Source of the DNA: Alphaproteobacteria bacterium
GTDB taxonomy: Bacteria > Pseudomonadota > Alphaproteobacteria > UBA7887
Length of the DNA: 64,000 nt
NCBI GenBank assembly: GCA_965216755.1
Contig: CBDCGL010000011.1
Span: 2,560,001-2,624,000 of the forward strand
Reading direction: 5' to 3'
Each line of letters starts with the position of its first letter. The stretch's first letter is position 1. The position numbers and the translations under genes were made by a program. Shown one piece after another: positions 1,260 to 17,980 of this stretch. Under the pieces are notes generated by a model. That model did not search any database and was not told where the DNA came from. It saw only the letters and a list, made by a program, of their open reading frames with translations.

Positions 1260-1900
1260 TACGGCCTCTGGGTCGCTTCACGCAGCATGCGCGGGTAGAT
1301 ATCCGCCATCACATCCGCAACATGATGCACGTCGGCCAAGTCCTGGCCCACAATGTGCGCCTCGATCTGCTCAATAATGTCCTTGGTGTGGTCTTGATCG
1401 GCTTCACCATGACCAGCCAAAAAACGAACCCCATCGGGCAACGCCAGTCCTTTGCCGACTTGTTCGGCGATCAAATGACCCAAGTCCTCACCCATCGCTT
1501 CCAGTACGAACAACCAACCAAACAGTCCGACCGGATTGGCATAGGTCGCGGTGTAATACTCGTATCCGATCATGGCCGCGCAGGCCGGCACGGGCCGGGT
1601 CGCGGCGACATCGTCACGTGAGACACCCAGCGCCGCCAAGTCACCGAGAGCCCACTCATCGTGCCCAAGTTCCTCGCGGGCATGGTGAAGCAGGTAATCC
1701 GCGACCGGTGGATTGCGCCCGACCGCGCGCGCGCCGGCGATGCCGATCACGATGGCGCTGTGCTGGGCGTAGTGCCAGACATTGGTCAGATAGCGCACAT
1801 AGACATCGCGGTCCGCCTTGCCTGCAATCAGGTCTTGGACAGCGCCGATTTGTACAATGTCGTCGCGCACCGCTCGGCGAAGTTGCGCCAAATACTCCAT
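1259..1900 (-). CDS. Heme-oxygenase-like diiron (iron-containing redox, TenA/PqqC/CADD-like) enzyme
   Basis: 'HAREELGH', 'VLE', 'FLAGHGEADQDH' metal-ligand pattern. Stop overlaps the GNAT start (TAATG). Start at 1900 (MEYLAQ) is chosen; the ORF is open to 1957. Confidence 0.75.
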   Translation of the reverse strand: MEYLAQLRRAVRDDIVQIGAVQDLIAGKADRDVYVRYLTNVWHYAQHSAIVIGIAGARAVGRNPPVADYLLHHAREELGHDEWALGDLAALGVSRDDVAATRPVPACAAMIGYEYYTATYANPVGLFGWLFVLEAMGEDLGHLIAEQVGKGLALPDGVRFLAGHGEADQDHTKDIIEQIEAHIVGQDLADVHHVADVMADIYPRMLREATQRP

Positions 1901-2031
1901 AAGACAAGCTCTTATCTCTGTGGCGCTGTTTGCCCAAGACATGCGCCCAAACACCAATTTTGGCGGAAATCTTAGCCGCCCGCACCGACATTGAGCAAAT
2001 GCCAGCTTGACCGCGCACGCAAGCGCGGCCG

Positions 2032-4074
2032 CTAGGCGCCAGTCGCGAGATTGTAGCTCCCATCCCAGTCCGAGGGCGGCGGATTTGCTGCGCGTTCCGC
2101 GGCACGCCGTGTCATGACCTGAGAGGGCCCGTCAATTTCTGCCAAAGCGCGCCACGCGCTTGCGGCACGCGCGAAATCGCCGGTCCGATAGATGTTGAGC
2201 GCGTTTTCATAGGCCGCCACGGTATGCCGCTGGGCGGCGGTCGCAGTCTCGTTATCGGCGATAATCTCAAATATCGTCAAGGGCGCGTCGATTCCCTTTA
2301 CCCGTACATGATCCAATTCACGCAACAAGAAATGATCGCGTATGGCGTCGGCCGTCGGCGCCCCGGCAACGACATTGCATCGATACAAGCCGGGCAGCGC
2401 TTCCAGCCGCGCCGCGACATTGACCATGGCGCCGATGGCCGTGTAGTTGAATCGCTTCTCATAACCGACATTGCCAACAATGGCATCGCCAGAGTGGATC
2501 GCGACTTTGATGCTGAAAGCATGTTCGCCGGCACGCTTGTCGCGTTCCTGCGTCACGGCCACTTGTTCGGTGATGCGCAGGGCCGCCGCCGCCGCGTCCA
2601 TGGCATGGTCGGCGTTCGGCAGCGGCGCGCCCCAAATCGCCATGACTGCGTCGCCGATGAACTTGTCGACATAGCCGTTCGCGCGATCGACTTCGCGGGC
2701 GACGATGCCGATATAGCGGTTGGTCAGTGCGACCAATTGGCTCGCCGGTATCCGCCGCGACAGTGCGGTGAATCCCGACAGATCGGCAAACATCACGGTC
2801 AAATCATGGTTCGCGCCCCCGAGCGTCAATGGCGTACCGCTATCGGCCAAGCGCGCGACCAAGACCGGCGAAAGATAGCGCCCGAAAGCCTGTTGCACGC
2901 GCCGGCGACGCCGATCTTCGAGCAAATAGCGGATCAAATAGGCGAGCGCCAGAGCGGCGGCAACCGCTATCATCGGGACCCCGGCCGGGAACCATATCTG
3001 CCAATCCAAAAGGACGATTTCACCCAGCCACAATCCGGCCAACGCCACCAGTCCGGCGGCGACCGCAAGCCACGGTACAAGCGTAAGACCAATGGTCGCA
3101 CCAATTGCCCCGGCCGCCGCGCCAATAGCGGCCCGCCATAGCGGCGCGATCAGTTCTGTGACGCGGCCGCGCAACACGGTATCGACGGCAACGGCATGCA
3201 AAAAAACGCCGGGCACGGCCGTACTGGCAAATCCCGGTCGCCAAGCACGCTGAGTGTCCCCATTGGATCGCGGCAAGAAACGGGCTGACGTGATCTTCTG
3301 GTCTTCCTCGGGCAGAGCACCACCGACAAAGACCACCTTGCCGGCAAATGCGTTGCGCAAGGTCTCGGGCGCCGACCGGCCCAACTGAAGAACATCGATC
3401 AGCGGAAAAGTCGGCAGTGATTCCGGGTGAAGATCGGGCGCGAGCAAGACCGGTGTCCGCCAGCGGTCATGTCCCAGGCGCGCCAACACCGCCCCCATGA
3501 GCGAGGCATACCAGTGCTCTTGCACTTCGAATCCTGCCGGTACCCAACGATAGACGCCGTCGTCGTCGGGCCGGACTTCGAGCAAGCCAAGCGCCGCCGG
3601 ATCGTTGCGCAAGGCCGCAATAAAGGGCGCTGCCGGGTTGGTCCGCACCGAACGGCCGAGGACCAAACGGTCCTTGTTCCGCGCCAACGCGGCGACAAAA
3701 TCGCGGTCAGCGTCGCGCTGGAAGGCGTTGCGCGAATAGGCGAGCAACATATCGAAGGCGACAACACGTGCGCCCGCATCGATCAATGTCGTAATCAGTT
3801 GCGCCCAATAGATTCCATAGAACGCACGCGGCCAGCGCGCCATTTCCGGATGTTCCAACGTGGTCGAATCGACAACCACGATCGCGACATCACTCTGCGA
3901 CCGATCTGCGCGTGCGGCACCGGTGGCGCTGTGCACAGCCAACGCGGTATCGAATAGCCAGCCGTCGACGACGGTCAAACCTTCAGATGTCAATGCGGCA
4001 AGGCCGGCAAGGCCCGCACAAAGAACCACGCTCGCGCGTATCACATATTTTCGGATGTTAGCGACCGGCCGCAC
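2032..4074 (-). CDS. CHASE2-domain class III adenylate cyclase
   Basis: Signal/TM, CHASE2 ('RWPRAFY','VAFDMLL','DDDGVYR','GKVVFVG','PGVFLHA'), three TM helices, then cyclase motifs 'VMFADLSGFT','DKFIGDAVMAIWGAP','YTAIG..VNVAARLE', and a TPR-like tail. Confidence 0.92.
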   Translation of the reverse strand: MRPVANIRKYVIRASVVLCAGLAGLAALTSEGLTVVDGWLFDTALAVHSATGAARADRSQSDVAIVVVDSTTLEHPEMARWPRAFYGIYWAQLITTLIDAGARVVAFDMLLAYSRNAFQRDADRDFVAALARNKDRLVLGRSVRTNPAAPFIAALRNDPAALGLLEVRPDDDGVYRWVPAGFEVQEHWYASLMGAVLARLGHDRWRTPVLLAPDLHPESLPTFPLIDVLQLGRSAPETLRNAFAGKVVFVGGALPEEDQKITSARFLPRSNGDTQRAWRPGFASTAVPGVFLHAVAVDTVLRGRVTELIAPLWRAAIGAAAGAIGATIGLTLVPWLAVAAGLVALAGLWLGEIVLLDWQIWFPAGVPMIAVAAALALAYLIRYLLEDRRRRRVQQAFGRYLSPVLVARLADSGTPLTLGGANHDLTVMFADLSGFTALSRRIPASQLVALTNRYIGIVAREVDRANGYVDKFIGDAVMAIWGAPLPNADHAMDAAAAALRITEQVAVTQERDKRAGEHAFSIKVAIHSGDAIVGNVGYEKRFNYTAIGAMVNVAARLEALPGLYRCNVVAGAPTADAIRDHFLLRELDHVRVKGIDAPLTIFEIIADNETATAAQRHTVAAYENALNIYRTGDFARAASAWRALAEIDGPSQVMTRRAAERAANPPPSDWDGSYNLATGA

Positions 4075-4117
4075 GTCCCATCGCCGCTGCTAAGCTCTCT
4101 TCACCACGCTTTGTGGA

Positions 4118-4774
4118 TCAATCAATCCGGATCAATGTCATGGCCTTGCCCCGCGCCCGGGTCAAGACATCCAAATCGACCCGTCCCACACTTTCGCCGG
4201 ACATGGCCAAGAGTTCCAAAGTCAACGTGGCGTCGTCGCCGAGCTCTTCAATATCTTGCGGCCATGTGAACCGGCGGTCTTCGACCGCGCCTTCATAGAT
4301 AACGCGATCATCACGCAGCACGCGTGCCTGCGCCACGGCGCCGCCCTTGGATCCGGCCATGACCAACGTCGAAGCGCTGCCAAGGCGGACCTTCACAGCA
4401 TTGCCCAAATCGCGGACCAACACCCCGCCGATCCCCGTGCCTTCGGACAACGCGATGGTTTGCGGACAATCTGCGCGTCGAACATCGACAATTTGACCCT
4501 GCTGCACGGTGTAACTCTGCGCGCTGAAATGGAGGCGCCCGCCCGTGACCACGACTTCCTTGCAAGTTGGATAATGGAGAAACTCGACCGTACCCGCATC
4601 CGCCAGCTCAACGGCATCGCCTGGCCACAGTTCCGAGAACGGTTCGACCTCGGCGCCACTGGTCGCGTCCAATGCCAAGGCGACGGCCGAGTCGGCGTGG
4701 GCGCGCAATGTCGGCGCCACGACAACACAGAGGCTGGCCAATAACAACAAGCGCGTCATGCGGTAGCACGTCAT
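4118..4774 (-). CDS. Secreted hypothetical protein (putative periplasmic partner of the CHASE2 cyclase)
   Basis: Signal peptide 'LLLLASLCVVVAPTLRAHA', two Cys in the mature part, 43 bp upstream of the cyclase on the same strand. Confidence 0.7.
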   Translation of the reverse strand: MTCYRMTRLLLLASLCVVVAPTLRAHADSAVALALDATSGAEVEPFSELWPGDAVELADAGTVEFLHYPTCKEVVVTGGRLHFSAQSYTVQQGQIVDVRRADCPQTIALSEGTGIGGVLVRDLGNAVKVRLGSASTLVMAGSKGGAVAQARVLRDDRVIYEGAVEDRRFTWPQDIEELGDDATLTLELLAMSGESVGRVDLDVLTRARGKAMTLIRID

Positions 4775-4905
4775 TTCAAATCTCTCGTTGCGCGATGATG
4801 GCGCAATTCACGTGGTTTCTATGGTTTCTATGGGGCGATTGTAGCTCGCCTCATCAGTTATGTCTTGGCGTGGCAGGTGCATCCACAACCGCCCGCGCCA
4901 CGCGT

Positions 4906-5091
4906 TCAGGCGTACAACTCGTCAATCTCCACGGCCGCGCCGCAATGGCGCCGGCGGTGTACCTCTTTAAGGACATCGCTGAGCATGTCCGACACGGCGT
5001 GAAGTTGGTCTTCATCACCTGTATCCAACGCCCAATCCATCAGCGTGGCCTGCGCGTCGTCAAGCATATCAAGCGCATAAGTTTGCATCAT
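4906..5091 (-). CDS. Small acidic hypothetical protein
   Basis: AGGGG RBS before ATGATG at 5091; helical acidic composition; no family recognised. Confidence 0.5.
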   Translation of the reverse strand: MMQTYALDMLDDAQATLMDWALDTGDEDQLHAVSDMLSDVLKEVHRRRHCGAAVEIDELYA

Positions 5092-5300
5092 TCGTCCCCT
5101 GGTGTTGGATGTTTCAATCTCGTGCATCAATGTTGATGCTCACCCATAGACACGATGGACGCGCCGACCAGGGGTTACGAATTGCGACAAACCGCGCGCC
5201 GTAGGCGCGAAAACGCCATCGGCGGCGTCGATAGACGCCGCCGTGACGTTGATGGGCCGGGGGAGGTTTTGGTAGCGGTCGTGTGCCGCTCGATCGGCGC

Positions 5301-5630
5301 CTACTTGGTCAGGACGTAAGACCCACCGCACGTCTTGCCGACCGTGCGATACATACGCCGGCGCAGATCCATCTCATCCGGCGGGCTCGCAGCGCCAGCA
5401 GCGGCCACAACGGGAACAGCGACGGCACCAGTCGCCACGCAACCGGCGCCTTTGAAAACTGCGTGAACAGGCGTGCCAACCACGTCGATCACGTTTCGGG
5501 CGGTCGCCGTCGCGGAAGAACCGGAATGCGGTCGGGCCGTCGGCACGCCGGCACGGGGGGAAACACTATCGTCATGGGCGCAAGCGGCGGTGGCCAGAAC
5601 AAGCGCCAGAAGCATGAGTTGTTTGCGCAT
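5301..5630 (-). CDS. Putative small lipoprotein
   Basis: MRKQLMLLALVLATAA-C lipobox-like signal; GGAG RBS upstream. Confidence 0.65.
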   Translation of the reverse strand: MRKQLMLLALVLATAACAHDDSVSPRAGVPTARPHSGSSATATARNVIDVVGTPVHAVFKGAGCVATGAVAVPVVAAAGAASPPDEMDLRRRMYRTVGKTCGGSYVLTK

Positions 5631-5905
5631 GGGATGGGAACTCCGGTTTTCTTGATGGTTAACTCAGTCAGTCAAACGTTCGATGATGTACACGGGGCGG
5701 ATCGCGGTGTGGGGTTACGTTGACAGCAAATTCTCGCGATTCTTTTCGGATCCGGACTTAAACGAAATGGCTCCCGATGTTGCGCCCGATCACCCCGGCG
5801 CTGCCTTCGGCCGACACGAGCAATGTCGGACATTGCCACGACGGTCGGCCGAAGGTCGCTTCCCCGGGGACACGGGTCGGGCGATGCGACGAAGAAACGC
5901 GGAGA

Positions 5906-6283
5906 TTAGATCTCGCTTGCGGCCAAGGATTTGGCGACCCGCCGCTTCATGGTCTCGTAATGCTTGACCGGAAACTCAAAAATGCGCTGAAAGGCACAAC
6001 CGTTGGCATCAAACGGCACCATGATGGCTTGGCGGCGCCGTGGATCCGCGAACGTCACGATGCGCTCGACACCGTCCATTTTCGGATCTAGATACTGCAA
6101 AATGCCTTGCGTGATATCACCATTGAGAGGATCCGCCGGACGGACATGACGCCCAAACCAAAGTTTGAGGTTTTCCTGGACGACGAACGCATCGGCACAT
6201 CCGGTTTCACTTGCCGCCTCATCCGATAGCACAGCAACAGCACAGACAACGGCGGTCAATAATGTCAACAAACGTTTGGGCAT
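5906..6283 (-). CDS. Secreted hypothetical protein
   Basis: AGGAGG RBS before ATG 6283; signal peptide MPKRLLTLLTAVVCAVAVLS; two Cys in the mature part. Confidence 0.65.
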   Translation of the reverse strand: MPKRLLTLLTAVVCAVAVLSDEAASETGCADAFVVQENLKLWFGRHVRPADPLNGDITQGILQYLDPKMDGVERIVTFADPRRRQAIMVPFDANGCAFQRIFEFPVKHYETMKRRVAKSLAASEI

Positions 6284-6409
6284 TGTAACCTCCTGCATGT
6301 CCCGGGGATTTGCGGCTTTGCGTGGGGTCGTCGTTGGCACCGCTTCTGCCTATAGACACGTAGAAAGCACAGGATAAGGGTTGCCAAAAATGTGCTGCGG
6401 GATGCGGAT

Positions 6410-6442
6410 AAAAAGATCCGGTGTGTGGAAACCACACACCGG
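6410..6442 (-). terminator. Rho-independent terminator
   Basis: Perfect 11-bp stem CCGGTGTGTGG/CCACACACCGG (6418-6442), followed on the minus strand by ATCTTTTT; lies downstream of ORF 6495-6683. Confidence 0.65.
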
Positions 6443-6494
6443 CTGAGTTCGACCATCAGGGAGGTATCGAGGAGGAAAAGCGTTGGAACGGGCG

Positions 6495-6683
6495 CTAGGC
6501 GGAAGCCGTTCGAAAAATGAAAGAATTTGTCATTTTGGCCATATCGGCGTGCTTGTTTTCGCCGGTCAGGTCCGAGATCGCCCGCCGCAAACCCGCGGCA
6601 TCATCGGCATAACCCGGTGCGTTGGTGAAAATCGCGAGGCCGATAAGGGCAACAATCGTGCGGATTTTCGAATTACGTGTCAT
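6495..6683 (-). CDS. Small secreted peptide/protein (62 aa)
   Basis: Signal peptide MTRNSKIRTIVALIGLAIFTNAPGYA; followed by a terminator. Confidence 0.5.
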   Translation of the reverse strand: MTRNSKIRTIVALIGLAIFTNAPGYADDAAGLRRAISDLTGENKHADMAKMTNSFIFRTASA

Positions 6684-6758
6684 GGTCGTGGCTCGCTGGC
6701 CTTATTGTTTTGCATCTTGGTTTTTTCTTGACCGTCGCCGCGGCACCTGGAGTTTTGG

Positions 6759-8126
6759 TTGCGTGCATGCGACGTTCGCCTGTTAACACGCCGGACGGTG
6801 CGCAATGGGGTGACCAGGACACGAAAAAATCTTGAACGGCGCCGCCATGGCGGCGCGGGCAATGGCGCGCGCGGCGCACCACGCCCGCTGGCCGGTGTGA
6901 TCTTGTTATGTTGCGTCTGTGTTATGGCGCTTGGACCTGCGGCGCTGGCGCAGCGTTCTCAGCAAGATCCAAACGCGTTCGCCGATGCCGAGGCGTTGGA
7001 AGGCGCCGCCCGTGACGGCGATCCACAGGCGCTGTTTACATTGGCCGATCAGTATGAGCAGGGCTTGGGCCGTGACTTTGATCTGACGGCGGCGGCACAC
7101 TACATGGAACTCGCGGCCGAACGTGGCCACCGTGCGGCACAGTATCGCATGGCGCTGATGCTGGCGCGGGGCGTTGGCGTGACCGCCGATACGCTCGAGG
7201 CGTATCGCTGGTGCCATTTGGTCGTCGGCGATGAGACCGATGGCGACGCGGCCCGAGACGATCGTGAGCCAGATACGATCGCCCTATTGGCGCGATCACT
7301 TTGCGCAACGTTGGCGGACACACTCTCCGTGGAGGATGTTCGCGCTGCCGAAGACCAAGCATCATCATTTGTCGCGGTCACTGGCCCCGTGCCGTCTGCG
7401 CAAGCGACGGCACAGGCGGCCGCCGACGACGATGTGGACGGCGATCCGGTGGCGCAGATTCTGGCACGGTTGCCGGCCGGGCAGTGCGGCGCCTACCAGA
7501 TCACCCAGGACGGCGACAACCGGTTTCAGCTTGCTGCGTATGCACCCAGCGCCGCGGCCAGAGACGCACTGGCGTCGGCATTTCGCGCCGAGACCGAAGC
7601 CAATGACGAGGCGATCAAAATCACGGTGCTGGCGCCCGTACTATGTGCCGTGATCGCGCTGATCGACCGACATCGGGCCACGGCACCCGTTTCCATTGGC
7701 ACCCTGTACAATGGGCGCGGGGAGGAAACCGACCTTTTCCAAGACGGCGACAGCGTCATTTTGGACATCTCACCGCGCGAGACGCCACACTATGTCGCCA
7801 TCGACTATTTGGTCGCCGATGGTGTCGCCGCGCGCCTGTATCCGCTTACATCCGAGAGTGAACACCTCCTGTCTGCCGGCGAACGACTGCGGCTGGGAGC
7901 CGAGGGGTCGCCATCAGGGGTGTGGGAGGTGGGGCCGCCATTTGGCTCTGACCTGTTGGTCATATTGGCGTCGCCCGACGCGCTGCAGCTTCGGATTCCG
8001 GCGCAAGACAGTGTCGCCGACTACACATCCACCCTTGAAAACGCGCTACGCGACAGCGGACCGAATGGGTCGTTGCTGATAGGCTATCGCGTGGTCACGA
8101 TCGAACCCGCTGGATCGACGCGATGA
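6759..8126 (+). CDS. Exported Sel1-repeat protein with C-terminal DUF4384-like domain
   Basis: Signal peptide '...VMALGPAALA'; Sel1 motifs 'GDPQALFTLADQYEQGLG','GHRAAQYRMALMLARGVG'; C-terminal 'FQDGDSVILDI...IDYLVADG...LYP...WEVGPPFGSDLLVILAS'. The true start is uncertain and probably downstream of 6759. Confidence 0.75.
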   Translation: MRACDVRLLTRRTVRNGVTRTRKNLERRRHGGAGNGARGAPRPLAGVILLCCVCVMALGPAALAQRSQQDPNAFADAEALEGAARDGDPQALFTLADQYEQGLGRDFDLTAAAHYMELAAERGHRAAQYRMALMLARGVGVTADTLEAYRWCHLVVGDETDGDAARDDREPDTIALLARSLCATLADTLSVEDVRAAEDQASSFVAVTGPVPSAQATAQAAADDDVDGDPVAQILARLPAGQCGAYQITQDGDNRFQLAAYAPSAAARDALASAFRAETEANDEAIKITVLAPVLCAVIALIDRHRATAPVSIGTLYNGRGEETDLFQDGDSVILDISPRETPHYVAIDYLVADGVAARLYPLTSESEHLLSAGERLRLGAEGSPSGVWEVGPPFGSDLLVILASPDALQLRIPAQDSVADYTSTLENALRDSGPNGSLLIGYRVVTIEPAGSTR

Positions 8127-9313
8127 GCCTGCTGAAGAACCCCTTTTTGTGGCAAGCCGTGGTCGCGCTGTTGTTTGTGCCCCTGCTGCTGACCATGGCG
8201 GCGCCGTTAGCCCCGGTCGCGCCCTTGATCGCGTTGGTGGCGGCCTGCTATGTGATCTGGCGTCTCACCCGCATCGGCGGCGTGGTACGACGGGCCGCTG
8301 CCGCCCTGGCGCCCGACCGCACGCCGCCGCGCGCACCCGCCATATCCGGCACGATCGCACCGCTCGAGCAAAGCGCCAAAATCGACCCCGATGACATGCG
8401 CCGCTATCTCAATGCCTGCGTCATCGGCCAGGACGTCGTCGCCGGACAACTGGCGCGCGGTATCTATCGTCGAATGGCCCAACAACAACGCAACAAACCG
8501 ATCTTTACGGCTTTGCTGAGCGGGCCCACCGGAACAGGCAAGACCGAAATCGCGAAAGCGGTCGCCCGTTATTTGTTTGGCAGCGTCAGCAGCATGTTTC
8601 GAGTCGACTGCGCCAATGTGCTCGGCGAAGCCGGCCTGCAAACTCTGATCGGATCGCCCAAGGGATTTGCCGGGTCCAGTTCGTGGGGATCGCTGACCGC
8701 CCATTTGCGGGCGATGCCACGCACTGTCCTGTTGTTCGACGAAATCGAAAAGGCGGTGCCTTCACCCACCGCACCGATGGCCAAATTGCTGTTGTCACTG
8801 CTCGATGAGGGCGTGTGTACCGAGCAAAGCGACGGCACCGCGGTCAGCGCAACCGAGGCGGTGATCCTGCTCACCTCGAACGCGGCGCAAAAGCGCCTTG
8901 GCCCCATATTCCAGCAATATCGGGACAAGCCCGAGGAGCTGGTCCGGGCCACCAAGGACACGCTTCAGGACCATTTTGCCCCCGAATTCCTGGCCCGTAT
9001 CGATCTGGTCACCACCCTGGCGCCGCTTGACGACCAGGCGCGCGGCAAGATCATCGCCATGCACGCCGGCCGCATCGGTGATTCCTATGGGGTCAGCATT
9101 GCCAGCGTCGACGCCTCCTTTGTCAACGAAGCCCTGCGTATCGCGAACAGTCTGGAAGACTACGGGACGCGTGAAATCATCCGTTGGGTCGAACAAGCCG
9201 TTGCCGACCAGTTGATCAAGGCGGCGGAAAGCGGCACCAAACGCGCCTCGCTCGCTTGGTTAGACGGCGCCGTGCGGGTCACACCGGTCAGCGACGCCGC
9301 CGAAACGCCGTGA
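8123..9313 (+). CDS. Membrane-anchored stand-alone ClpA/ClpB D2-type AAA+ ATPase
   Basis: Two N-terminal TM segments; Walker A GPTGTGKT; pore loop LIGSPKGFAG; Walker B LLFDEIEKA; sensor-1 LTSN; PEFLARID; sensor-2 YGTR. ATGA overlap with the upstream gene. Confidence 0.85.
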   Translation: MSLLKNPFLWQAVVALLFVPLLLTMAAPLAPVAPLIALVAACYVIWRLTRIGGVVRRAAAALAPDRTPPRAPAISGTIAPLEQSAKIDPDDMRRYLNACVIGQDVVAGQLARGIYRRMAQQQRNKPIFTALLSGPTGTGKTEIAKAVARYLFGSVSSMFRVDCANVLGEAGLQTLIGSPKGFAGSSSWGSLTAHLRAMPRTVLLFDEIEKAVPSPTAPMAKLLLSLLDEGVCTEQSDGTAVSATEAVILLTSNAAQKRLGPIFQQYRDKPEELVRATKDTLQDHFAPEFLARIDLVTTLAPLDDQARGKIIAMHAGRIGDSYGVSIASVDASFVNEALRIANSLEDYGTREIIRWVEQAVADQLIKAAESGTKRASLAWLDGAVRVTPVSDAAETP

Positions 9314-9329
9314 TGACCCGCCCCCGGCC

Positions 9330-12300
9330 ATGACGGCACCGGCACCCAAGACCGGGCTTGGTGCCCGCCTTTCGTGGATTCTCCGCCACGACTGGCTGTT
9401 TGTTCCCGCCATGATTGTGACCCTGTATGGCGGTTATCTGTCGGTCACGGCGCCGCCCAATTGGCTGCAGCGTGTACCTGTCGCGGTCGATGATGTGGTC
9501 ACTGGCGCCCGACAGGACTTGACCGCGACCGTCGATGAACTTCAAGTGGCCAGCAACGAAGCGCGCCGCCTGTTTGACGATGCCAGCGCTGAATTCGCGC
9601 AGGAACGGGAGTCGCTGCAAGACGCGGTCGCATCGCGCGACACCGAAATCGACGCGCTCAACGAGTCCTTGGACGAGACGCGCGAGGCACTCGATCAACG
9701 CACCCAAACCTTGAATGAACGCGACGCGCGTTTGGCCGAATCGCGCGACTCGGTCGCCGCCTTGGAACAAGAAGCCACCGCAATCGCAAGCGAACGCGAC
9801 GACCTGCGTACGGCGCTGGATTTTGCCGAATCCGACCTGGCGCGCGCGCAGGACCGGGTTGCCGCTTTGCAGGCCGCGTTGGCCGAACGCGCCGCGTCCG
9901 TCGAATCGCTGACCAGCGAGGCCGCCAATGCCAGCACACAAACCGATGCCCTGCGCGACTCTCTGACCGGCGCGCAACGAGACCTTGACGCTGCCGAGCA
10001 ACGCGTCGTGGCCTTAGAGGAAGCTCTGGCCGATCGTGAGGCCAGCGTCACGCGACTCGAAGAACAGTTGACCGCGACAGCGGCCGAACGTCGCGAACTG
10101 GAAAGTGCACTGAGCGCCGCACAACAGGACGTCGCGGCGGCACGCGACCAAGCGGCTGTCTCAGACGCCCGAGTCGCGGAACAAGCCGCAGAAATCACCG
10201 CGGACCAGCAAGAGATCACCAGGCTCAACACGGCTTTGACGACCGCACGCGCGCAAACTGCCGCGACGGAACAGCAAATGGTCGAGGTGAACAGCGGTTT
10301 GGACGCTTTGCGCAACGAACGCGCGGCCTTGGCCGCGTCTGTCGACAGCCAAAGACAGCGCATCGCGACATTGACGTCAACGCTGGCCGACGCCGAAACC
10401 CAGCTCGGTCAAAGTGCCGCCCAGTTGGCGGCGCGCGACGCCACGATCGAGCAACTCAACCAGCAAATCAGATCCGCCCAATCGGCCTCCGACAGCCTGC
10501 GTGAAACGCTGTCCGACGTGACCACGGCCAGCGGCGAGACCCAAGGCCAAATCGCCACGCTCGGCGCCACGCTGGCGCAAACCCGGGCCGAACGGACCGC
10601 ATTGGCCACGGAGGTCGCGGCACAGCAAGCGCAAATCGAAACGCTCAATGCGGCGCTGGGAGACGCCCGAACTGCGTTGGAAAGCGGCACCGCGACGTTG
10701 GCCGAACGCGAAGCGGCGGTGGCGTCGTTGGAAGAGCAAATCGCGGCCGCGACGGCGGAACGGGCCCGTTTGGTCGCGTCGGTGCAAGAAGCCGAAGCGG
10801 CCGCTGCCGACGCGCGGGCACAGACGTCAGATCTTGAAGCCCGTTTGCAAGAACAGGCTGCCGCGATTGCCACGCAGGAACAACAGGTCACGATATTGCG
10901 CACCGACCTTGATGCCGCGCGCGAGGCGGCGACGGCCGCAACGGCCGATGCCGCTGCGCTGGCCACCGATCGCGACGCGTTGGTCGCGGAACGTGACCAA
11001 TTGGCCGAGGCGCGGACAGCCGAAGCCGACCGCATCACGACGCTGACAGCGTCACTGGCGGCGGCCCAAGCGGCACACGACGACACCCTCGCCACGCTTG
11101 CCGAACGGGAGGCGGCCGCCGAAATCGTCACAAGCCAGGTCGCCGAGGCCGCGCAACAACGCGCGCAATTGCAAGCCGCCCTGGCCGATGCGGAACAAGC
11201 GGCGGCCGCGGCGAGCAGGCGCGCGGCCGCGCTGGAGCAGCAAGTGCGCGATCAGGCCGGCGCCGACGCAGACGCGTCGCAGATCGCCGATTTGACAATC
11301 CGTCTGCGCGACGTGGAAAACGAACGCGATGCGGCGTTGGCATCCTTGGCCGAGGCGGAAGAAGGCGCCGCGGCCGCAACCAATCGCGTGGCCGAACTGC
11401 AGCGCCAAGCCCAAAATCAGGCCGCTGCCGATGCGTCAGAGATCGCTGACCTGGACGCCCGCCTGCAAGAGGTCGAAGACGCGCGCGAAGCCCTTTCCAC
11501 CGAATTGACCGAGCAACAGGCGATGGCGACATCGCTGACCGCGGCGCGTGAGACCGCCGAGGCAGCGCTCGTTGAGGCCAATCGTGAGACCGCGGAATTG
11601 ACCGAACGGCTGCAAGGCATTGACTCCGAACGTGCGACCTTGGCGGCGAACGTAACGTCCCAGCAACAGGAAATGGCGGCTTTGTCCGCGTCACTCGCCA
11701 ACGCCAAAGCGGACTTTGACGGGCAAACCATCGATTTGGCGGAACGCGACGAAACCATCGCGAAATTGACGGCCCGAGTGACCGACGCCGAAGCCGAGAC
11801 CGAACGCCTGTCGGCCGCGGTGGCCGATGGCCGCACCGCCCTGGCGGACAGGGAAACCGACTTGGCGGACGCCCGACGACAAGCCGACGCCGAGCGCGCC
11901 GAATTGGAGCAACTCGGCGACCGCTTGCGCCAATCGGAACGCGAATTGGCACGGCGCACCCGGCTGGCCGGAGCTTTGCAATCGGAAGTCATGCGCCTGA
12001 TGGGAGCCCTTGGCGCATCCCAGAAAGCCGCCGGCACCGGCGATGCGGAGTCGGGCACGGGGCCTGGACAGGCAGCGGCATCCGGTGGCGCCGGATCCGA
12101 CATCGGCAAATATCGGTCGGCGTTCTTCGCGTTGCTCAGCGCGGTGGTTGGTACACGCAGCGATGTGCGCACGGTCGGCGATCGTTTTGTGTTTCCGTCA
12201 GAGGTCTTCTTTCCATCGGGTTCGGCGATCCTTGGCCCCGAAGGCCGCGCGGAATTGGACAAGGTCGCCGATGCGCTATTGGAAATTGCACGCAACATTC

Positions 12301-12557
12301 CGCCGGAAACATCGTGGGTGTTGCGGGTCGACGGTCATACCGACCGGCGCCCCATTCAGACCTCGGAATTTCCGTCGAATTGGGAGCTGTCGACAGCCCG
12401 GGCGCTGTCTGTGGTGCGCTATTTGATCGAACGCGGGATCCCGCCCGACCGCTTGGCCGCGTCGGGATTCGGCGAGTTTCACCCAATCGATCCTGGCCAG
12501 TCCGGAGACGCCTTTCGCCGCAATCGGCGTATAGAACTAAAACTCACCACACGCTGA
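9330..12557 (+). CDS. Giant coiled-coil protein with C-terminal MotB/OmpA-like peptidoglycan-binding domain
   Basis: One N-terminal TM, about 850 aa of Ala/Glu/Gln/Leu heptads, then 'VGDRFVFPSEVFF...LRVDGHTD...SNWELSTARA...GFGEFHP...NRRIELKL'. Confidence 0.88.
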   Translation: MTAPAPKTGLGARLSWILRHDWLFVPAMIVTLYGGYLSVTAPPNWLQRVPVAVDDVVTGARQDLTATVDELQVASNEARRLFDDASAEFAQERESLQDAVASRDTEIDALNESLDETREALDQRTQTLNERDARLAESRDSVAALEQEATAIASERDDLRTALDFAESDLARAQDRVAALQAALAERAASVESLTSEAANASTQTDALRDSLTGAQRDLDAAEQRVVALEEALADREASVTRLEEQLTATAAERRELESALSAAQQDVAAARDQAAVSDARVAEQAAEITADQQEITRLNTALTTARAQTAATEQQMVEVNSGLDALRNERAALAASVDSQRQRIATLTSTLADAETQLGQSAAQLAARDATIEQLNQQIRSAQSASDSLRETLSDVTTASGETQGQIATLGATLAQTRAERTALATEVAAQQAQIETLNAALGDARTALESGTATLAEREAAVASLEEQIAAATAERARLVASVQEAEAAAADARAQTSDLEARLQEQAAAIATQEQQVTILRTDLDAAREAATAATADAAALATDRDALVAERDQLAEARTAEADRITTLTASLAAAQAAHDDTLATLAEREAAAEIVTSQVAEAAQQRAQLQAALADAEQAAAAASRRAAALEQQVRDQAGADADASQIADLTIRLRDVENERDAALASLAEAEEGAAAATNRVAELQRQAQNQAAADASEIADLDARLQEVEDAREALSTELTEQQAMATSLTAARETAEAALVEANRETAELTERLQGIDSERATLAANVTSQQQEMAALSASLANAKADFDGQTIDLAERDETIAKLTARVTDAEAETERLSAAVADGRTALADRETDLADARRQADAERAELEQLGDRLRQSERELARRTRLAGALQSEVMRLMGALGASQKAAGTGDAESGTGPGQAAASGGAGSDIGKYRSAFFALLSAVVGTRSDVRTVGDRFVFPSEVFFPSGSAILGPEGRAELDKVADALLEIARNIPPETSWVLRVDGHTDRRPIQTSEFPSNWELSTARALSVVRYLIERGIPPDRLAASGFGEFHPIDPGQSGDAFRRNRRIELKLTTR

Positions 12558-12571
12558 TCAATAACGGCACC

Positions 12572-12611
12572 GGACCGTGGCGGCCATGTCTGATACCGGC
12601 CGCCACGGTCC
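12572..12611. terminator. 14-bp perfect inverted repeat between convergent genes (likely bidirectional terminator)
   Basis: GGACCGTGGCGGCC (12572-12585) / GGCCGCCACGGTCC (12598-12611); no clear U-tract. Confidence 0.55.
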
Positions 12612-12669
12612 CGTCTCGTGAAATAGCCCGGACCCTTTTGCCATGAACCCGGTCTATCTCGGCGTGAAT

Positions 12670-13275
12670 TCAGCCGCCGAGATTGATGATCTTGACCCGT
12701 CGATTGGCCCCTGAGGCCGGATCGGCACTGTCATACAGCTCCGATTCGCCTTTGCCGACCGTCACCAGGCGGACATGGTCGACAGCGTGCCGTGAGATCA
12801 GATAATTCTGAACCGACAGCGCGCGTTTTTCGGACAAGCTCTGGTTGTAGCTGTCAGAGCCCACGGCGTCCGTGTGGCCTTCGATCACAAACTTAAACGC
12901 ACCGAGATCGTCAGAATTGAGCGCCGCGGCCAAGTTATCCAGCGTGGCCATGCCATCCGGCGTCAACTCCGCAGAGTCGAACCCGAACTCGATCCGCACC
13001 GAGGCGGCGGGACTCAATTGCTCGGGTTGAGCCTGTGTCGCCGCTGTTTGCGGCATCGTTTCCGGATCGGCGTTCGGATCCGGTCGACGTTGAATGCCAC
13101 GCGTGCGGAACATTGGCTGCGGCTTGAGCGCTTGGATGAAATCATCAACGCTGGCGCCATCTTCCAAATAAGCGCTGGCGTCATCAGCTAAGACACCCTG
13201 ATTTGGGCCAAAAACAGCGACGAGCGCCGCGGTCACGGCCACCACGGTTAAACTGCGCATTACGTTCATCGTCAC
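12670..13275 (-). CDS. Exported OmpA-family peptidoglycan-binding protein
   Basis: Signal peptide; 'IEFGFDSAEL...IEGHTDAVGSDSYNQSLSEKRA...GKGE...NRRV'. Confidence 0.9.
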   Translation of the reverse strand: MTMNVMRSLTVVAVTAALVAVFGPNQGVLADDASAYLEDGASVDDFIQALKPQPMFRTRGIQRRPDPNADPETMPQTAATQAQPEQLSPAASVRIEFGFDSAELTPDGMATLDNLAAALNSDDLGAFKFVIEGHTDAVGSDSYNQSLSEKRALSVQNYLISRHAVDHVRLVTVGKGESELYDSADPASGANRRVKIINLGG

Positions 13276-13520
13276 CCCTCTGTCAGGCTTCTTTCGTTAT
13301 TATAACGGGTGTCGGCACTATTGCAGACACCTTAGTCTAACACGCAACAGGACTGGGTGAGGGGTTTGTGGACCAGGGCCGGTGTGCGATGAAATTAAAG
13401 GGTGTTGCATTTTTGCGCCTCGATAAAACGTAGCAACAAGTGAACACGTGAAAAAATCGCGCTTTGTAACTGGAAAGCAAAGGGTTAGCCTTACGAACCA
13501 GAATAGACATTGATCGAATT

Positions 13521-14507
13521 ATGAAGCGCATCGCATTCATTACTGGCTTGCTGCTCTATGCGGCGCCGGCGCTAGCCGACGTGTCGGAAGCGCTGACGGC
13601 GTATCGGCGCGGCGACTACGCGACGGCGATCACCGAATTCACCGTGGCCGCGCAAGCCGGCGATCCTGTTGCACAGTTCAATTTGGCTGTGATTCACCAT
13701 AAGGGCGTCGGCACGTCGCCGGACCCGGCATTGGCCAGCGAATGGTACCGGGCCGCCGGTCTGCAGGGCTTGCAGCAAGCCCAGATTGAATTAGGTCGCA
13801 TGTATGCCACCGGCGCAGGCGCCTTTTGGAACGCCGAAGCCGCCGAGATCTGGTACCGTGCGGCGGCAAAACATGGTGACTCAACCGCGCAGTACCAACT
13901 TGGCGAGATGTACTACAGAGGCGACGGGGTTCAGAAGGACGGCGCCGAAGCCGCCAACTGGTTGCGCTTGGCCGTTGAGCAAAACCATGTGCGCGCGCAA
14001 TTCCTTTTGGGATACCTGCACGCTGCCGGAGTCGGCGTCGCGCAAAGCGATGAATTGGCGGCGAAGTATTATCGCATGGCCGCCGAGGCGGGATATCCGC
14101 CGGCGCAGTTGAATTTGGCCTTCATGTATTCCCATGGCAAGGGCGTGCCGCGCGATTTCAACGAAGCCACGAAATGGAATCGGCGCGCCGCGCGGCAAGG
14201 TTATGCCGGCGCGCAAGGCATTGATATTATTGAACGCAGCAATGTGGACGGGGTGCCACAGAGCTTCGTGGATGCCTATGCGTGGTGGCACATGGCCGCG
14301 GTCCACGGCAACCCCTTAGGGACCAGCTATCGCGACACCCTAAATACGCTGCTAACGCCCGAGGAAGTAACCGAAGCGATCGCTCTGTTTGACCAACTGA
14401 TGAGCGAAGCCAAGGTCGCCGGCAGCAGTCGGGCGACACCGCCCCGCGAGCGTTCGAACATGGTCAACAACCGGCCTGATTTGGCCATTCAAACGTCGGC
14501 AAAATAA
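13521..14507 (+). CDS. Exported Sel1-repeat protein
   Basis: Signal peptide ending 'APALA'; about six Sel1 repeats (e.g. AQFNLAVIHHKGVG, AQYQLGEMYYRGDGV, AQLNLAFMYSHGKGV). Confidence 0.9.
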   Translation: MKRIAFITGLLLYAAPALADVSEALTAYRRGDYATAITEFTVAAQAGDPVAQFNLAVIHHKGVGTSPDPALASEWYRAAGLQGLQQAQIELGRMYATGAGAFWNAEAAEIWYRAAAKHGDSTAQYQLGEMYYRGDGVQKDGAEAANWLRLAVEQNHVRAQFLLGYLHAAGVGVAQSDELAAKYYRMAAEAGYPPAQLNLAFMYSHGKGVPRDFNEATKWNRRAARQGYAGAQGIDIIERSNVDGVPQSFVDAYAWWHMAAVHGNPLGTSYRDTLNTLLTPEEVTEAIALFDQLMSEAKVAGSSRATPPRERSNMVNNRPDLAIQTSAK

Positions 14508-14821
14508 TCGTCGGCGATCACAAATTCGTCACCCCTCCTCCGTCACCGCCACGTGTCTACCGTTAGCAGGTTCTGCGTCTCCCGTGTCGCGCCCCGCGGT
14601 TTGGGTTCGATCTGCCGGCAACAATGCCGCGCAATCAATCCGTTGCCGCGCCACGTGCGCGTGCGCGCAGACCAGATCGACATGCCGCGCCGGACCCGTG
14701 CCGGAACATGGCAGTCGACATAATGAAGCAGGAAAGGAACGACGGGACGTGGCATGATGATTTCGCGAGCGTTAGGATTATTGCCCGCTGGTCGATGCCG
14801 CACATTGATTTGGAGGAAGCC

Positions 14822-17800
14822 ATGACTGTCGAAGCCTATGAGACGCATCCGCGTCGGTTTGGACCGCGTCGGTTTGCGACTTTGTCGGCACGCTGGGGTC
14901 TGTTCGCGGCCCTTTGCCTTGCGATGCCGGGTCTGGTTGTATCGGCGACCAGCAGCCCACATGGAGACTGGTTTATCCGGCCGGCAGCCGCCGCGACCAA
15001 CGTCGCCGATAAGTTCACCGTGGTCGATTGCGTACTGCCCGGGCAAGTGCGCAAGTTGGGTCGCCGGACAACCTATTTGACCGCCCGTCGGGCCACCAAA
15101 ACGTCGATCTTGGACTGCGAAATCCGTGGCGGCGAGTATGTCGCCTATGACCGTGCTTCGTATCAGACGGCCCTGAATGTATGGATGGACGAGGCCGGCG
15201 CGGGCGATCCGCAAGCCCAGCTTTACGTTGGCGAGATCTACGAGAAAGGCCTCGGCGTGGCGCCCGATTACGACCTCGCCGCGGTCTGGTACAAAAAGGC
15301 GGCCGAACAAGGCCTGGCGCCGGCTCAAGTCAATCTCGGCAATCTCTATGAAAAAGGTCTCGGCGTGCCCAAGGATCCGGACACTGCCCTGGCGTGGTAT
15401 CGCCGCGCGTCCGGATTACCGGATGTCGGCCTCGACTATATGCCGTTTGGTGACTTTGCTCAGCAGGTCGAAGGGTTGCGCCAAGAACTGGCGTCACGCA
15501 CCGAACAGCTAGAGCTGCGCACAGAGGAATTGGCGCAACGGACCCAGGAGGTCGAGCAGTTGCGAGGGTCCCTGGGTCAAGCGCAGCGCAGCCTGCATGA
15601 AACGACCCGTCAGTTATCGGCAAGCCAAAAAGCCGCCAGTGCCAAGCAAGCCGAATTGGCCGCGGAGCAGCAAGCCCTAGCCGCGGAACGCGCCGCCCTG
15701 ACCGCCTCGACCGAAGCCGTGAAGACCGAACGCGCCCGCCTGGAAGCGGCGCTGCAGAACGCCGGCGGTACCGACCCGGCGGAACTGCAAGCCTTGCAAG
15801 CGCGGCTTCAAGAGAGCGAACAAAACGTCGCGAAGCACCGCCAAGCCCTTGAAATCCGCAACCAACAAGTGACCCAGCTGAACAGCGAAGTCACCCAACG
15901 GAACCAAGAAATTGCCGCGTTGCAGACGGTCGCGGACAGCAAGGACGCGGAGTTCGCCGCGCTCAAACAAGAGCTCAGTGAGGGCAGCTCAGGCGCCGTT
16001 GCGTTGCGCCAACAGCTGGACCGTCGTGAGGCTGAACTGAAACAACTGACCGCCAAGCTCAGCGGCACCCAAACCGAACTGGAGACCACCAAGAACGCGT
16101 TGGCCGCGCGTACGTCCGAGGCCACCGCCCAGCGGCAACAGTTGGACAGTGTGCGCAGCGAACTTGAGGCGCAACAAAAAGCGCTCGACGCACTCAAAGC
16201 CCAGCAAGACGGTTTGGTCGACAAAGAAGAAGCCGACTCGGCCCGCAACACTTTACAAATGCAACTGCAAGACCGCGCCGATGCCTATATCCAAGCGGAG
16301 GCCGAGGTCGCCCGGCTCAACAGCGCCCTTGCCGACAGCCAGGGCGAGGTGGCGCAACTGCAAAACCAAGTCAACCAACTCGCGGTGCAAGCGACCAACC
16401 AGCGCGAGCAATTGGCCTCCGCGGAACTGGCGGTAGAATCCTCGTCGGCCACCGAAGACGCACTCAAGCAAGAGGTTGAGCGACGCGCCGCCGAGGTCGG
16501 AAGCCTGAACCAGCAATTGGCGGAACTTGCCGACACGTTGCAGCAGAAGTCCGCGCAACTGGCACGACGGGAAGCCGATTCGGAACTTGCCAGCAATCAG
16601 TTGGCCGCCGCGCAACAGGAGCTATCGGATACACGCACGGCGCTCGAAGCGCTGCAATCGGATACCACCGCCAATACGGCCGACTTGAACCAGCGGATCC
16701 AAGCATTGACCGCGCAATACCAAGCGGGACAGGAGAAAGCCGCGCAGCTCGACGCCGAGTTGGCGGATAGTCGCTCGGAGATCGGCCGCCTTGAGTCGCA
16801 ATTGGCCAACCTCGAGGTCACCGCCAATAGCCAGGAACAGGAACTGGTCACGGCAGAGCAGCAGTTTGTTGACGCCGGCCCGATCATCGAACTGATCGAC
16901 CCGGCATTGCTGGTCACGCCCGAAGGGCGCACCATCGCGCGTACGCGCGGCGGCATCGAAAGTCGCGTGCTCATCGGGCGGGTCACCGCACCATCTGGCC
17001 TGTTGACCCTGACCATCAACGACGTCGAACAGCAGTTCGACGAGCAAGGCCTGTTTCGGGCCAGCTTGCCGGTCATCGGCGCCACCACCGGCGTCACGAT
17101 TAGCGCGGTCGATAGCAACGGCTATCGCAGCGCGTTGGACTTCTCTCTTGAGCTCGACGGCTCTGGCGAGATTGCCGCGCCGCCAACACCAGAGGTCAAG
17201 ACCCCCAGTCAACCGCCGCTGGTGCCGATTGCCGATGTCAAGTTCGGCAATTACTACGCGCTGGTCATCGGTAGCAACGACTACGCGCACCTGCCTGATC
17301 TGGAGACCGCGATTACCGACGCCCGCGCCGTTTCGCAGGTGTTGCGGGACAAGTACGGCTTTATCGTGACCACGCTGGAAAACGCAACCCGTTACGACAT
17401 TCTGTCGGCGATGAACGAATTCCGCGAGACGCTAACGGAAGAAGACAACTTCCTGCTCTATTACGCGGGTCATGGTGAGCTCGACCGCGTCAATCAACGC
17501 GGCCACTGGCTGCCCATCGATGCCGAGCCGGACAGCACCGCCAATTGGATCTCCAACGTGGCGATCGCCGACATCCTCAACGCGATGAACGCCAAGCATG
17601 TCTTGGTGGTGGCGGATTCGTGCTATTCCGGCGCCCTGACACGCACCGCTTTGGCGCGCCTCAACACCGGCATGACGCAAGAGCAACTGACCCAGTGGCT
17701 CAAGGTGATGGTGCAAAAACGCGCCCGTCTGGCGTTGACGTCGGGTGGCTTGCAGCCTGTCTATGACAGCTTCGGCGGCGATCATTCGGTATTCGCTAAC

Positions 17801-17980
17801 GCGATCTTGGGCGTATTGAATGACAATGGCGAAGTGTTGGGCGGTCAGCGTTTGTTTGAAGAGGTCGCGGCGCGAGTCAATTTCGTCGCCCAGTCATACG
17901 GCCTTGAACAATTGCCGCAATATTCGCCGATCCGGTTTGCCGGCCATGAATCCGGCGACTTCTTTTTCGTGCCGCTCTAA
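14822..17980 (+). CDS. Exported Sel1 / long coiled-coil / caspase-like (peptidase C14) protein
   Basis: GGAGG RBS before ATG 14822; signal peptide with RRF motifs; Sel1 repeats; about 480-aa coiled coil; C14 domain 'YYALVIG...YYAGHG...VADSCYSG' with intact His/Cys dyad. Confidence 0.9.
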   Translation: MTVEAYETHPRRFGPRRFATLSARWGLFAALCLAMPGLVVSATSSPHGDWFIRPAAAATNVADKFTVVDCVLPGQVRKLGRRTTYLTARRATKTSILDCEIRGGEYVAYDRASYQTALNVWMDEAGAGDPQAQLYVGEIYEKGLGVAPDYDLAAVWYKKAAEQGLAPAQVNLGNLYEKGLGVPKDPDTALAWYRRASGLPDVGLDYMPFGDFAQQVEGLRQELASRTEQLELRTEELAQRTQEVEQLRGSLGQAQRSLHETTRQLSASQKAASAKQAELAAEQQALAAERAALTASTEAVKTERARLEAALQNAGGTDPAELQALQARLQESEQNVAKHRQALEIRNQQVTQLNSEVTQRNQEIAALQTVADSKDAEFAALKQELSEGSSGAVALRQQLDRREAELKQLTAKLSGTQTELETTKNALAARTSEATAQRQQLDSVRSELEAQQKALDALKAQQDGLVDKEEADSARNTLQMQLQDRADAYIQAEAEVARLNSALADSQGEVAQLQNQVNQLAVQATNQREQLASAELAVESSSATEDALKQEVERRAAEVGSLNQQLAELADTLQQKSAQLARREADSELASNQLAAAQQELSDTRTALEALQSDTTANTADLNQRIQALTAQYQAGQEKAAQLDAELADSRSEIGRLESQLANLEVTANSQEQELVTAEQQFVDAGPIIELIDPALLVTPEGRTIARTRGGIESRVLIGRVTAPSGLLTLTINDVEQQFDEQGLFRASLPVIGATTGVTISAVDSNGYRSALDFSLELDGSGEIAAPPTPEVKTPSQPPLVPIADVKFGNYYALVIGSNDYAHLPDLETAITDARAVSQVLRDKYGFIVTTLENATRYDILSAMNEFRETLTEEDNFLLYYAGHGELDRVNQRGHWLPIDAEPDSTANWISNVAIADILNAMNAKHVLVVADSCYSGALTRTALARLNTGMTQEQLTQWLKVMVQKRARLALTSGGLQPVYDSFGGDHSVFANAILGVLNDNGEVLGGQRLFEEVAARVNFVAQSYGLEQLPQYSPIRFAGHESGDFFFVPL

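Follow-up and report, generated by a model that had tools for sequence, protein, structure and literature searches.

The 64,000-nucleotide stretch of alphaproteobacterial DNA analyzed here (the window; positions 2,560,001 to 2,624,000 of contig CBDCGL010000011.1, lineage UBA7887) carries, at positions 6759-12557, three genes that we call the triad. They encode a secreted Sel1-DUF4384 protein (gene 1), a membrane-anchored AAA+ ATPase (gene 2) and a long coiled-coil protein with a C-terminal OmpA-type domain, the anchor (gene 3). Our analysis suggests that the triad may be an undescribed ATP-powered machine of the cell envelope. Pfam, NCBIfam and PADLOC gave only domain-level or below-cut-off matches to it, and no description of the operon was found in the openly available articles searched, PMC7159879 included. 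The operon is real and apparently undescribed.

The known inner-membrane energy transducers that are anchored in peptidoglycan (Mot, Zor, Tol, Exb) use ion gradients. If our reading is true, peptidoglycan anchors of the Mot/Zor kind can couple to more than one type of energy source, a membrane-anchored bacterial branch of the Hsp100 family is defined, and DUF4384 gains its first functional handle. The triad is small and self-contained (three genes, about 5.8 kb), and the reading is directly testable.

Organization of the operon

A first-pass annotation, made from the sequence, had described for 6759-12557 three genes with an ATGA overlap, a 16-bp gap and a 14-bp hairpin, all of which we found; the genes are co-oriented. 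The features are the following (AF2, AlphaFold 2 model; ORF, open reading frame).

6759-8126 (+): gene 1, Sel1-DUF4384 protein; longest ORF, 5' end uncertain; Pfam, orthologue alignment, AF2, Foldseek
8123-9313 (+): gene 2, membrane-anchored AAA+ ATPase; Pfam, PDB sequence search, AF2, Foldseek
9330-12557 (+): gene 3, coiled-coil-OmpA anchor; Pfam, NCBIfam, alignments
6684..6896 (+): intergenic sequence upstream of gene 1, with its uncertain 5' end
12572..12611 (+): GC-rich hairpin with a 14-bp stem and a 12-nt loop; folding

Genes 1 and 2 overlap at 8123-8126, genes 2 and 3 are separated by positions 9314-9329, and the G+C content at third codon positions is, for all three, ordinary for the window. 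The ORFs exist as annotated, but gene 1 probably starts downstream of 6759. The start codon of its longest ORF is a TTG, in-frame GTG codons follow at 6798, 6810 and 6897, the protein collection contains a 400-aa version of the product, and the N terminus resembles a signal peptide, a stretch that ends ...AALA/QRS. The true start is probably within 6798-6897. No sigma-70-like site was found in 6684-6896.

On the downstream side, a perfect 14-bp stem (12572-12585 paired with 12598-12611) starts 15 nt past the stop codon of gene 3. Its folding energy is -38.3 kcal/mol (z = -4.4), a stability that none of 200 shuffled sequences matched. The stem lies between convergent genes and has no U-tract; it is not a canonical intrinsic terminator. 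The structure probably marks the end of the transcription unit. Upstream of gene 1 lies a divergent 62-aa ORF (6495-6683, -), which has a signal-peptide-like start, looks secreted, matches no family and is followed by its own strong terminator-like hairpin at 6442-6418 (-). With this ORF and its hairpin on one side and the stem on the other, the three genes form a bounded unit.

Conservation of the triad

Does the arrangement recur elsewhere? A metagenome scan with a family-specific sub-alignment of the ATPase returned 50 loci, and our counts are based on the 11 loci (L100-L109, L114) in which the ATPase is 61-74% identical to the window copy. A coiled-coil-OmpA gene lies downstream of the ATPase in all 10 loci that extend past it, with the stop codon of the ATPase and the start codon of the anchor overlapping as ATGA each time (10/10), and the four complete metagenome anchors all have the OmpA domain at their end. 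Upstream, a Sel1-DUF4384 gene is present in the 7 loci that could be assessed (E 1e-35 to 3.5e-11); the other 4 of the 11 start inside the ATPase gene or less than 170 nt before it. The first-pass annotation was to fall if its genes were not conserved together, and they are.

The flanks of the triad differ between loci: a TetR regulator, an aldo-keto reductase, a DUF3237 protein, an AraC regulator and a sugar kinase in L103, a flavoprotein in L100, aspartyl-tRNA synthetase (AspRS) in L101 and ribosomal protein L13 in L102. Hence, the triad is an autonomous, translationally coupled cassette that travels as a unit. That unrelated genes should be adjacent by chance is hardly credible: the same order and the same junctions are found at 11 independent metagenome loci whose flanks are unrelated. 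The parts have diverged to different extents. Apart from the ATPase, identity to the window copy is 51-53% in the last ~210 aa of the anchor, 19-39% in its first 170 aa and 30-34% in gene 1.

A membrane-anchored ATPase of the ClpB type

The gene in what the first-pass annotation called the "MotA position" had been read as a membrane-tethered Clp-type ATPase, and the combination of an N-terminal transmembrane (TM) hairpin, an AAA_2 domain and the fold of the second nucleotide-binding domain (NBD2) of ClpB bears this out.

about 8141-8263 (+): TM hairpin of gene 2, residues 7-47; hydrophobicity, AF2
8387-9229 (+): ClpB-NBD2-like module of gene 2, residues 89-369; AF2, Pfam

The product has 396 aa and a single AAA module. 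Residues 8-47 are hydrophobic and are followed by Arg-rich sequence. The AF2 model (predicted local distance difference test, pLDDT, 83.6) has helices at 7-23 and 32-60, a disordered linker of ~28 residues (61-88) and the AAA+ module at 89-369. Pfam AAA_2 matches at 1.4e-30, the PDB sequence search returned NBD2-like modules of ClpB, ClpC and Hsp104 (ClpB NBD2 at 5e-33), and Foldseek aligned the model to ClpB NBD2 with a TM-score of 0.81. Neither Pfam nor AF2 revealed a peptidase, an N-domain and an M-domain are absent, and the chain ends ~25 residues past the AAA lid. The protein falls below the NCBIfam cut-offs of the full-length families, with 140 bits against 1232 for ClpB, 133.8 against 885 for TssH, and scores likewise far below those of ClpA and ClpV.

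The 36 ATPase orthologues show no variation in Walker A (G134-T141), R292 (the Arg finger) or T251/S252, while conservation of D206/E207, N253 and R350 is 90% or higher. The catalytic set (Walker A, Walker B, sensor 1, Arg finger, sensor 2 and an aromatic pore-loop residue) is kept in gene 2 and, at these levels, throughout the orthologues; where ClpB has its pore-loop tyrosine, the window copy has F and the orthologue consensus Y. From these motifs the ATPase looks active. Its model is that of a candidate single-ring AAA+ ATPase anchored in the inner membrane, which may assemble as a hexamer.

Such a protein could also work apart from the anchor. Clp/Hsp100-like ATPases are regulated by partner proteins, as ClpC is by MecA and torsin by LAP1/LULL1. 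The ATPase could be a membrane-localized unfoldase or disaggregase for other clients, positioned or regulated by the anchor and the Sel1 protein, or else a dedicated assembly chaperone that helps to insert the coiled-coil protein, with its great length and high charge, into the membrane. The single-ring, NBD2-type Skd3/CLPB is among the PDB matches, Pfam Torsin matches weakly (E 0.0011; 19.6 bits, below the gathering score of 27), and at the G091 locus and at L110, near TraG/VirD4, distant relatives of the ATPase have different envelope proteins, bitopic or secreted, as neighbors. We nevertheless regard this explanation as somewhat unlikely, since the strict ATGA coupling (10/10) and the rare, conserved N-terminal module of the anchor (see below) favor a stoichiometric partner over a loose regulator.

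The loci of these and other relatives are varied. The G091 locus (L099, G091:C17, 3482-13930) contains a divergent TPR-CHAT gene and encodes two AAA proteins, one with two TMs and a weak match to Torsin, the other a soluble ATPase of the AAA_2 type with 40% identity to gene 2. It also encodes a secreted Sel1 protein, a bitopic protein of 248 aa and a secreted protein of 563 aa, and has a glycine-zipper/SH3 lipoprotein-like gene. In L110 (6770-10522) and L111, a 383-aa TM-AAA_2 homologue, 52% identical, lies two genes past the gene for the TraG/VirD4 coupling protein, with that for a MobA/MobL relaxase also nearby. The contig has 48% GC; the context is that of a conjugative element, and Sel1 or OmpA partners are absent. 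L115 and L116 (9005-12292) have a 511-aa form of the ATPase, 55% identical and with a longer multi-TM N terminus, which lies downstream of secA and a methyltransferase gene and upstream of the gene for a 545-aa membrane protein that belongs to no family. In L112 (484-4294), on a 4.8-kb contig of 70% GC, several tblastn matches to the ATPase overlap and fall on both strands; they may be frameshifted or duplicated copies.

The anchor and its descent

Profile and paralogue comparisons trace the triad anchor to a MotB/ZorB-like anchor of the PRK09039 family. It has the following parts.

9330..9515 (+): N-terminal module, residues 1-62; alignments, profile search
9516..12104 (+): coiled coil rich in Ala, Glu, Gln and Arg, ~850 aa; Pfam and NCBIfam coiled-coil matches
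11640..12554 (+): PRK09039-like C-terminal region; NCBIfam, paralogue identity
12207-12527 (+): OmpA/MotB-type domain, predicted to bind peptidoglycan; Pfam OmpA 3.8e-17

Residues 771-1075 match the NCBIfam PRK09039 models ("peptidoglycan-binding protein"), the best at 9.6e-77 (NF006543, 259.1 bits, cut-off 305); the curated cut-offs of the equivalogs NF006542-NF006546 are missed by the window anchor, by its L103 and L100 orthologues and by protein P0130. A paralogue in the same genome, P0145, is a canonical member of the family (437-442 bits), and the window anchor is 61% identical to it over the last 152 aa. The ZorB models of PADLOC match the OmpA part at 8e-19. No tandem repeats were found in the DNA of the coiled-coil gene beyond one 26-bp array.

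The relationship stops short of the N terminus. In four triad anchors compared with the models, the NCBIfam alignments begin at model position 45 or later, leaving the first 44-80 positions unused. The TM signature of the P0145 type is present in all 13 aligned members (W15, P16, F18, V19 and D20 invariant, G17 nearly so), and a PRK09039/MotB-type TM is absent from the triad anchors: hhalign of the two N-terminal profiles gave a probability of 0.6%. The anchors have instead a module of their own. It starts with a tail of ~20 aa whose last residue, D21, is invariant; a TM follows at about residues 22-41, and next to it, on the predicted periplasmic side, is a juxtamembrane motif that is likewise invariant (P42, P43, W45, R48, P50, A52, D55, V56, G59, R61). 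Residues 1-62 are the best-conserved part of the anchor outside the OmpA domain. A profile search of 1.84 billion representative proteins with this module found just 20 matches, ~14 of them N-terminal, and the five full-length matches tested (558-783 aa) all have OmpA at the C terminus. D21 lies at the membrane boundary, preceded by residues that are basic or polar; we considered it as a homologue of the MotB-type TM aspartate and rejected this, as the profiles have no similarity. Read from the sequence, the tail is probably cytoplasmic and the coiled coil periplasmic.

These observations raise an additional question: what became of the ion channel? Anchors of the MotB, ZorB or ExbD type normally pair with one, and the triad had been annotated as lacking a MotA. 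The upstream neighbor of the anchor is indeed the AAA+ ATPase, and the five matches to MotA_ExbB (PF01618) in the genome all lie outside the window. Four of these five genes have candidate partners directly downstream (Tol, Exb and two divergent sets); near the flagellar motA, no motB was seen within the 3.3 kb examined. A MotA partner encoded elsewhere, which would have spoken against the annotation, is unlikely because the anchor lacks a MotB/PRK09039-type TM.

The paralogue P0145 is informative in this respect. Directly upstream of its gene lies that of P0144. This membrane protein of 399 aa has a long helical tail, and its matches to MotA_ExbB PF01618 (E 0.0078) and ZorA (E 0.002-0.004) are weak and all below cut-off.

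L154:6360-8745 = G000:C11:2364362-2366744 (-): P0144/P0145 pair, own genome

A P0144 match is present in 35 genomes, and in 31 of these the homologues of P0144 and PRK09039 are next to each other; in the remaining four the two matches are on separate small contigs. P0144/P0145 appears to be a core, uncharacterized stator-like pair. It is flanked by a 433-aa protein with a weak OmpA match and a 245-aa protein that belongs to no family. The notion of a "MotA position" gained support from this comparison, since the slot that a weakly MotA/ZorA-like gene occupies upstream of PRK09039 holds the ATPase in the triad. The anchor has thus exchanged both its membrane module and its upstream partner, the TM for an unrelated and rare N-terminal module and the channel gene for an ATPase.

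The secreted Sel1-DUF4384 protein

Gene 1 contains two recognizable regions and a domain between them.

about 6993-7226 (+): 2-3 Sel1 repeats; Pfam (2.2e-8)
7737-7976 (+): DUF4384 beta-sandwich; Pfam (1.1e-7)

The AF2 model (pLDDT 79.4) has Sel1 helices, a small alpha/beta domain and a beta-sandwich, and the alignment of seven orthologues has two invariant Cys in the middle domain and a conserved DUF4384 core. Foldseek matched the first part to the Sel1 proteins LpnE, LceB and MotX (LPHT ring; 8z5n_C) and the sandwich to Ig-, MG- or MSP-like domains. A word-based protein search with residues 180-455 found only the protein itself, the orthologues being too divergent for shared words, and the ESM Atlas gave only unnamed DUF4384 clusters for the C-terminal half.

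The match to MotX brings up a passive alternative, in which the anchor and the Sel1 protein are a scaffold between inner membrane and peptidoglycan, and the ATPase is co-expressed with them and not mechanically coupled. OmpA-type anchors and Sel1 proteins do cooperate in passive structures, and MotX works with the OmpA-like protein MotY in the T-ring of Vibrio. We find this quite improbable, because it does not account for a threading ATPase that has stayed intact and whose translation is coupled to that of the anchor at every one of the 10 loci.

A possible mechanism

We tentatively favor, as the first among several possibilities, a single complex of inner membrane and periplasm in which an AAA+ ring pulls the N-terminal tail of the anchor using ATP. 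A hexameric, protease-less ring of the ClpB-NBD2 type would hang under the inner membrane on its N-terminal TM hairpins, with its substrate-entry face toward the membrane, as in FtsH. Substrates enter ClpB NBD2 at its N-terminal face, and it is this, together with the N-terminal hairpin and the short linker, that leads us to place the pore there. The ring would grip the short cytoplasmic tail of the anchor and its TM module and pull. This is the simplest reading because a cytoplasmic tail lies beside a conserved TM module and because the anchor is translationally coupled to the ATPase; the pulling, like the physiological role it would serve, is something that we infer. On the other side, the anchor would reach through its long periplasmic coiled coil to the peptidoglycan-bound OmpA-type domain. 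Pulling could load the wall anchor with tension, or it could dislodge, extract and reset it. The Sel1-DUF4384 protein may be a periplasmic adaptor or regulator acting on the coiled coil or on the juxtamembrane motif. In evolution, an anchor of the PRK09039 family would have swapped its ion-channel-coupled TM and its MotA/ZorA-like partner for the new N-terminal module and the ATPase. A more specific version would make the triad a new class of trans-envelope motor: the AAA+ ring replaces the pentameric ion channel of the MotAB/ZorAB/TolQR-type 5:2 machines, the peptidoglycan-anchored coiled coil is moved from the cytoplasmic side by ATP hydrolysis in place of ion flux, and the Sel1-DUF4384 protein gates or targets the movement in the periplasm. 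This version seems to us doubtful.

Several points weigh against the pulling model and call for caution. The coiled coil varies from ~350 to ~850 aa among anchor orthologues and, if periplasmic, is by our estimate several times longer than the periplasm is wide; its length and the spread of that length do not suit a fixed rod across the periplasm or a force transmitter of fixed length. The tail to be gripped is variable in sequence except for G9 and D21, and the TM of the window copy is moderately hydrophobic, below the Kyte-Doolittle threshold of 1.6. More distant relatives of the ATPase have other partners or no recognizable ones, so that there is no general link between the ATPase and OmpA anchors. 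The MotA/ZorA likeness of P0144 comes from weak matches and from reading its sequence. Finally, contact between the proteins of the triad is inferred only: a three-chain prediction with the ATPase, the Sel1-DUF4384 protein and residues 1-100 of the anchor gave a score of 0.06 against a mark of 0.32, which counts neither way.

Distribution and genomic neighborhood

The cassette is rare around its host. It was not found in the 22 other genomes of the order, and 40 relatives have no orthologue of the ATPase, giving only ClpB- or ClpA-type matches of at most 36% identity. In a class sample of 401 genomes, E 1e-50 was reached by the own genome and by just one of the other 400 (40% identity). A large protein collection has ~60 full-length ATPase clusters (385-403 aa, 57-68% identity), mostly metagenomic, a few of them labeled Geminicoccaceae. 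A plasmid tblastn with the ATPase (E limit 1e-40) gave no match, and a contig scan with the whole-ATPase alignment, which includes generic Clp motifs, kept 80 loci, all Clp-type genes 29-39% identical.

The surroundings of the triad in the window are the following; further neighbors encode secreted hypothetical proteins.

2032-4074: CHASE2-adenylate/guanylate cyclase; PycC-like matches
12670-13275: OmpA lipoprotein-like gene
13521-14507: Sel1 protein gene
14624-17980: caspase gene with Sel1 repeats and a long coiled coil; weak match, "EACC1-associated" type

In two genomes of the same family (L167, L168), homologues of the CHASE2-cyclase, of a secreted 218-aa protein (hyp218) and of the caspase are immediate neighbors. 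In the window, the cyclase-hyp218 pair (2032-4774) and the caspase are separated by ~9.85 kb (4775-14623) that contain the triad, which looks like part of an inserted, accessory segment. None of the window neighbors was found beside the triad in the metagenome loci, and the caspase and cyclase are therefore a separate module. We considered them as members of the system and rejected this: the module exists without the triad, and the triad without the module.

Could the triad be a conflict or defense module? It would then be a Zorya-like envelope sensor, whose fast-evolving periplasmic parts detect phage or other attack on the envelope and whose ATPase triggers the response. The patchy distribution described above fits, as does the divergence of the periplasmic parts (30-34% identity) relative to the ATPase (61-74%). 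The OmpA part matches ZorB models, the ATPase partly matches PDC-M37B and DolB, the window cassette lies between a PycC-like cyclase and an EACC1-associated-type caspase, and the G091 relative adjoins a TPR-CHAT protein. However, the flanks elsewhere are housekeeping or metabolic genes (AspRS, ribosomal protein L13, TetR/aldo-keto reductase, sugar kinase), which argues against a defense island, no effector domain (nuclease, pore, NADase) is seen in the triad, the PADLOC matches are at the level of generic domains, and the CHASE2-hyp218-caspase module and the triad each occur without the other. Of the Zorya set, no ZorA, ZorC or ZorD match was found among the 11 proteins of the region, the matches being to ZorB-like OmpA only. 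We consider a role in defense improbable.

At the edge of the window (120-1957, -) lies a gene for a FeeM-like N-acyl amino acid synthase fused to a cyclic-nucleotide-binding domain. It adjoins a haem-oxygenase-like iron enzyme and is close to the CHASE2-cyclase, and this neighborhood may encode an acyl-amino-acid signal pathway controlled by cyclic nucleotide monophosphates.

Comparison with known systems

How does the triad relate to known machines? The gene 2 product shares sequence, fold, and catalytic and pore-loop motifs with the NBD2 of ClpB, ClpC and Hsp104 and with the single-ring Skd3/CLPB. It differs from ClpB, ClpA and ClpV in having one AAA module, neither N- nor M-domain, and an added N-terminal TM hairpin. 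The geometry suggested by its AF2 model, an AAA+ ring anchored to the membrane by its N terminus with the entry face toward the membrane, would be that of FtsH, Msp1/ATAD1 and Bcs1, of which Msp1/ATAD1 and Bcs1 are membrane extractases. In contrast to FtsH, gene 2 has no protease or other C-terminal domain, and it is of the Clp/Hsp100 NBD2 type and not of the classical FtsH type.

As a whole, the triad resembles the ExeA/GspA-ExeB system in combining an inner-membrane ATPase with a periplasmic peptidoglycan-binding domain in envelope assembly. That system uses another class of ATPase, has the peptidoglycan-binding domain on the ExeA polypeptide itself, and is not known to have either the long coiled coil or the Sel1-DUF4384 partner of the triad. 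Like MotX of the Vibrio T-ring, gene 1 encodes a periplasmic Sel1-repeat protein (E 1e-4 by sequence, 7e-7 in NCBIfam, and 8z5n_C in Foldseek), but the likeness is confined to the Sel1 repeats (28.9 bits against a family cut-off of 330) and gene 1 has extra domains.

The closest comparison is with the stator-like pairs. ZorAB is a 5:2 motor that binds peptidoglycan and has a long tail of coiled coil (PMC11946911). As in PRK09039/P0145, the triad anchor has an N-terminal TM, a periplasmic coiled coil and an OmpA domain, and its partner gene lies directly upstream. Unlike PRK09039/P0145 and, by extension, the ion-driven 5:2 motors MotAB, ZorAB, TolQR and ExbBD, it lacks the MotB-type TM signature and has an AAA+ ATPase upstream in place of a channel. 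It also differs from PRK09039/P0145 in that the coiled coil is 2-4 times longer and that a secreted Sel1-DUF4384 protein is added as an extra component.

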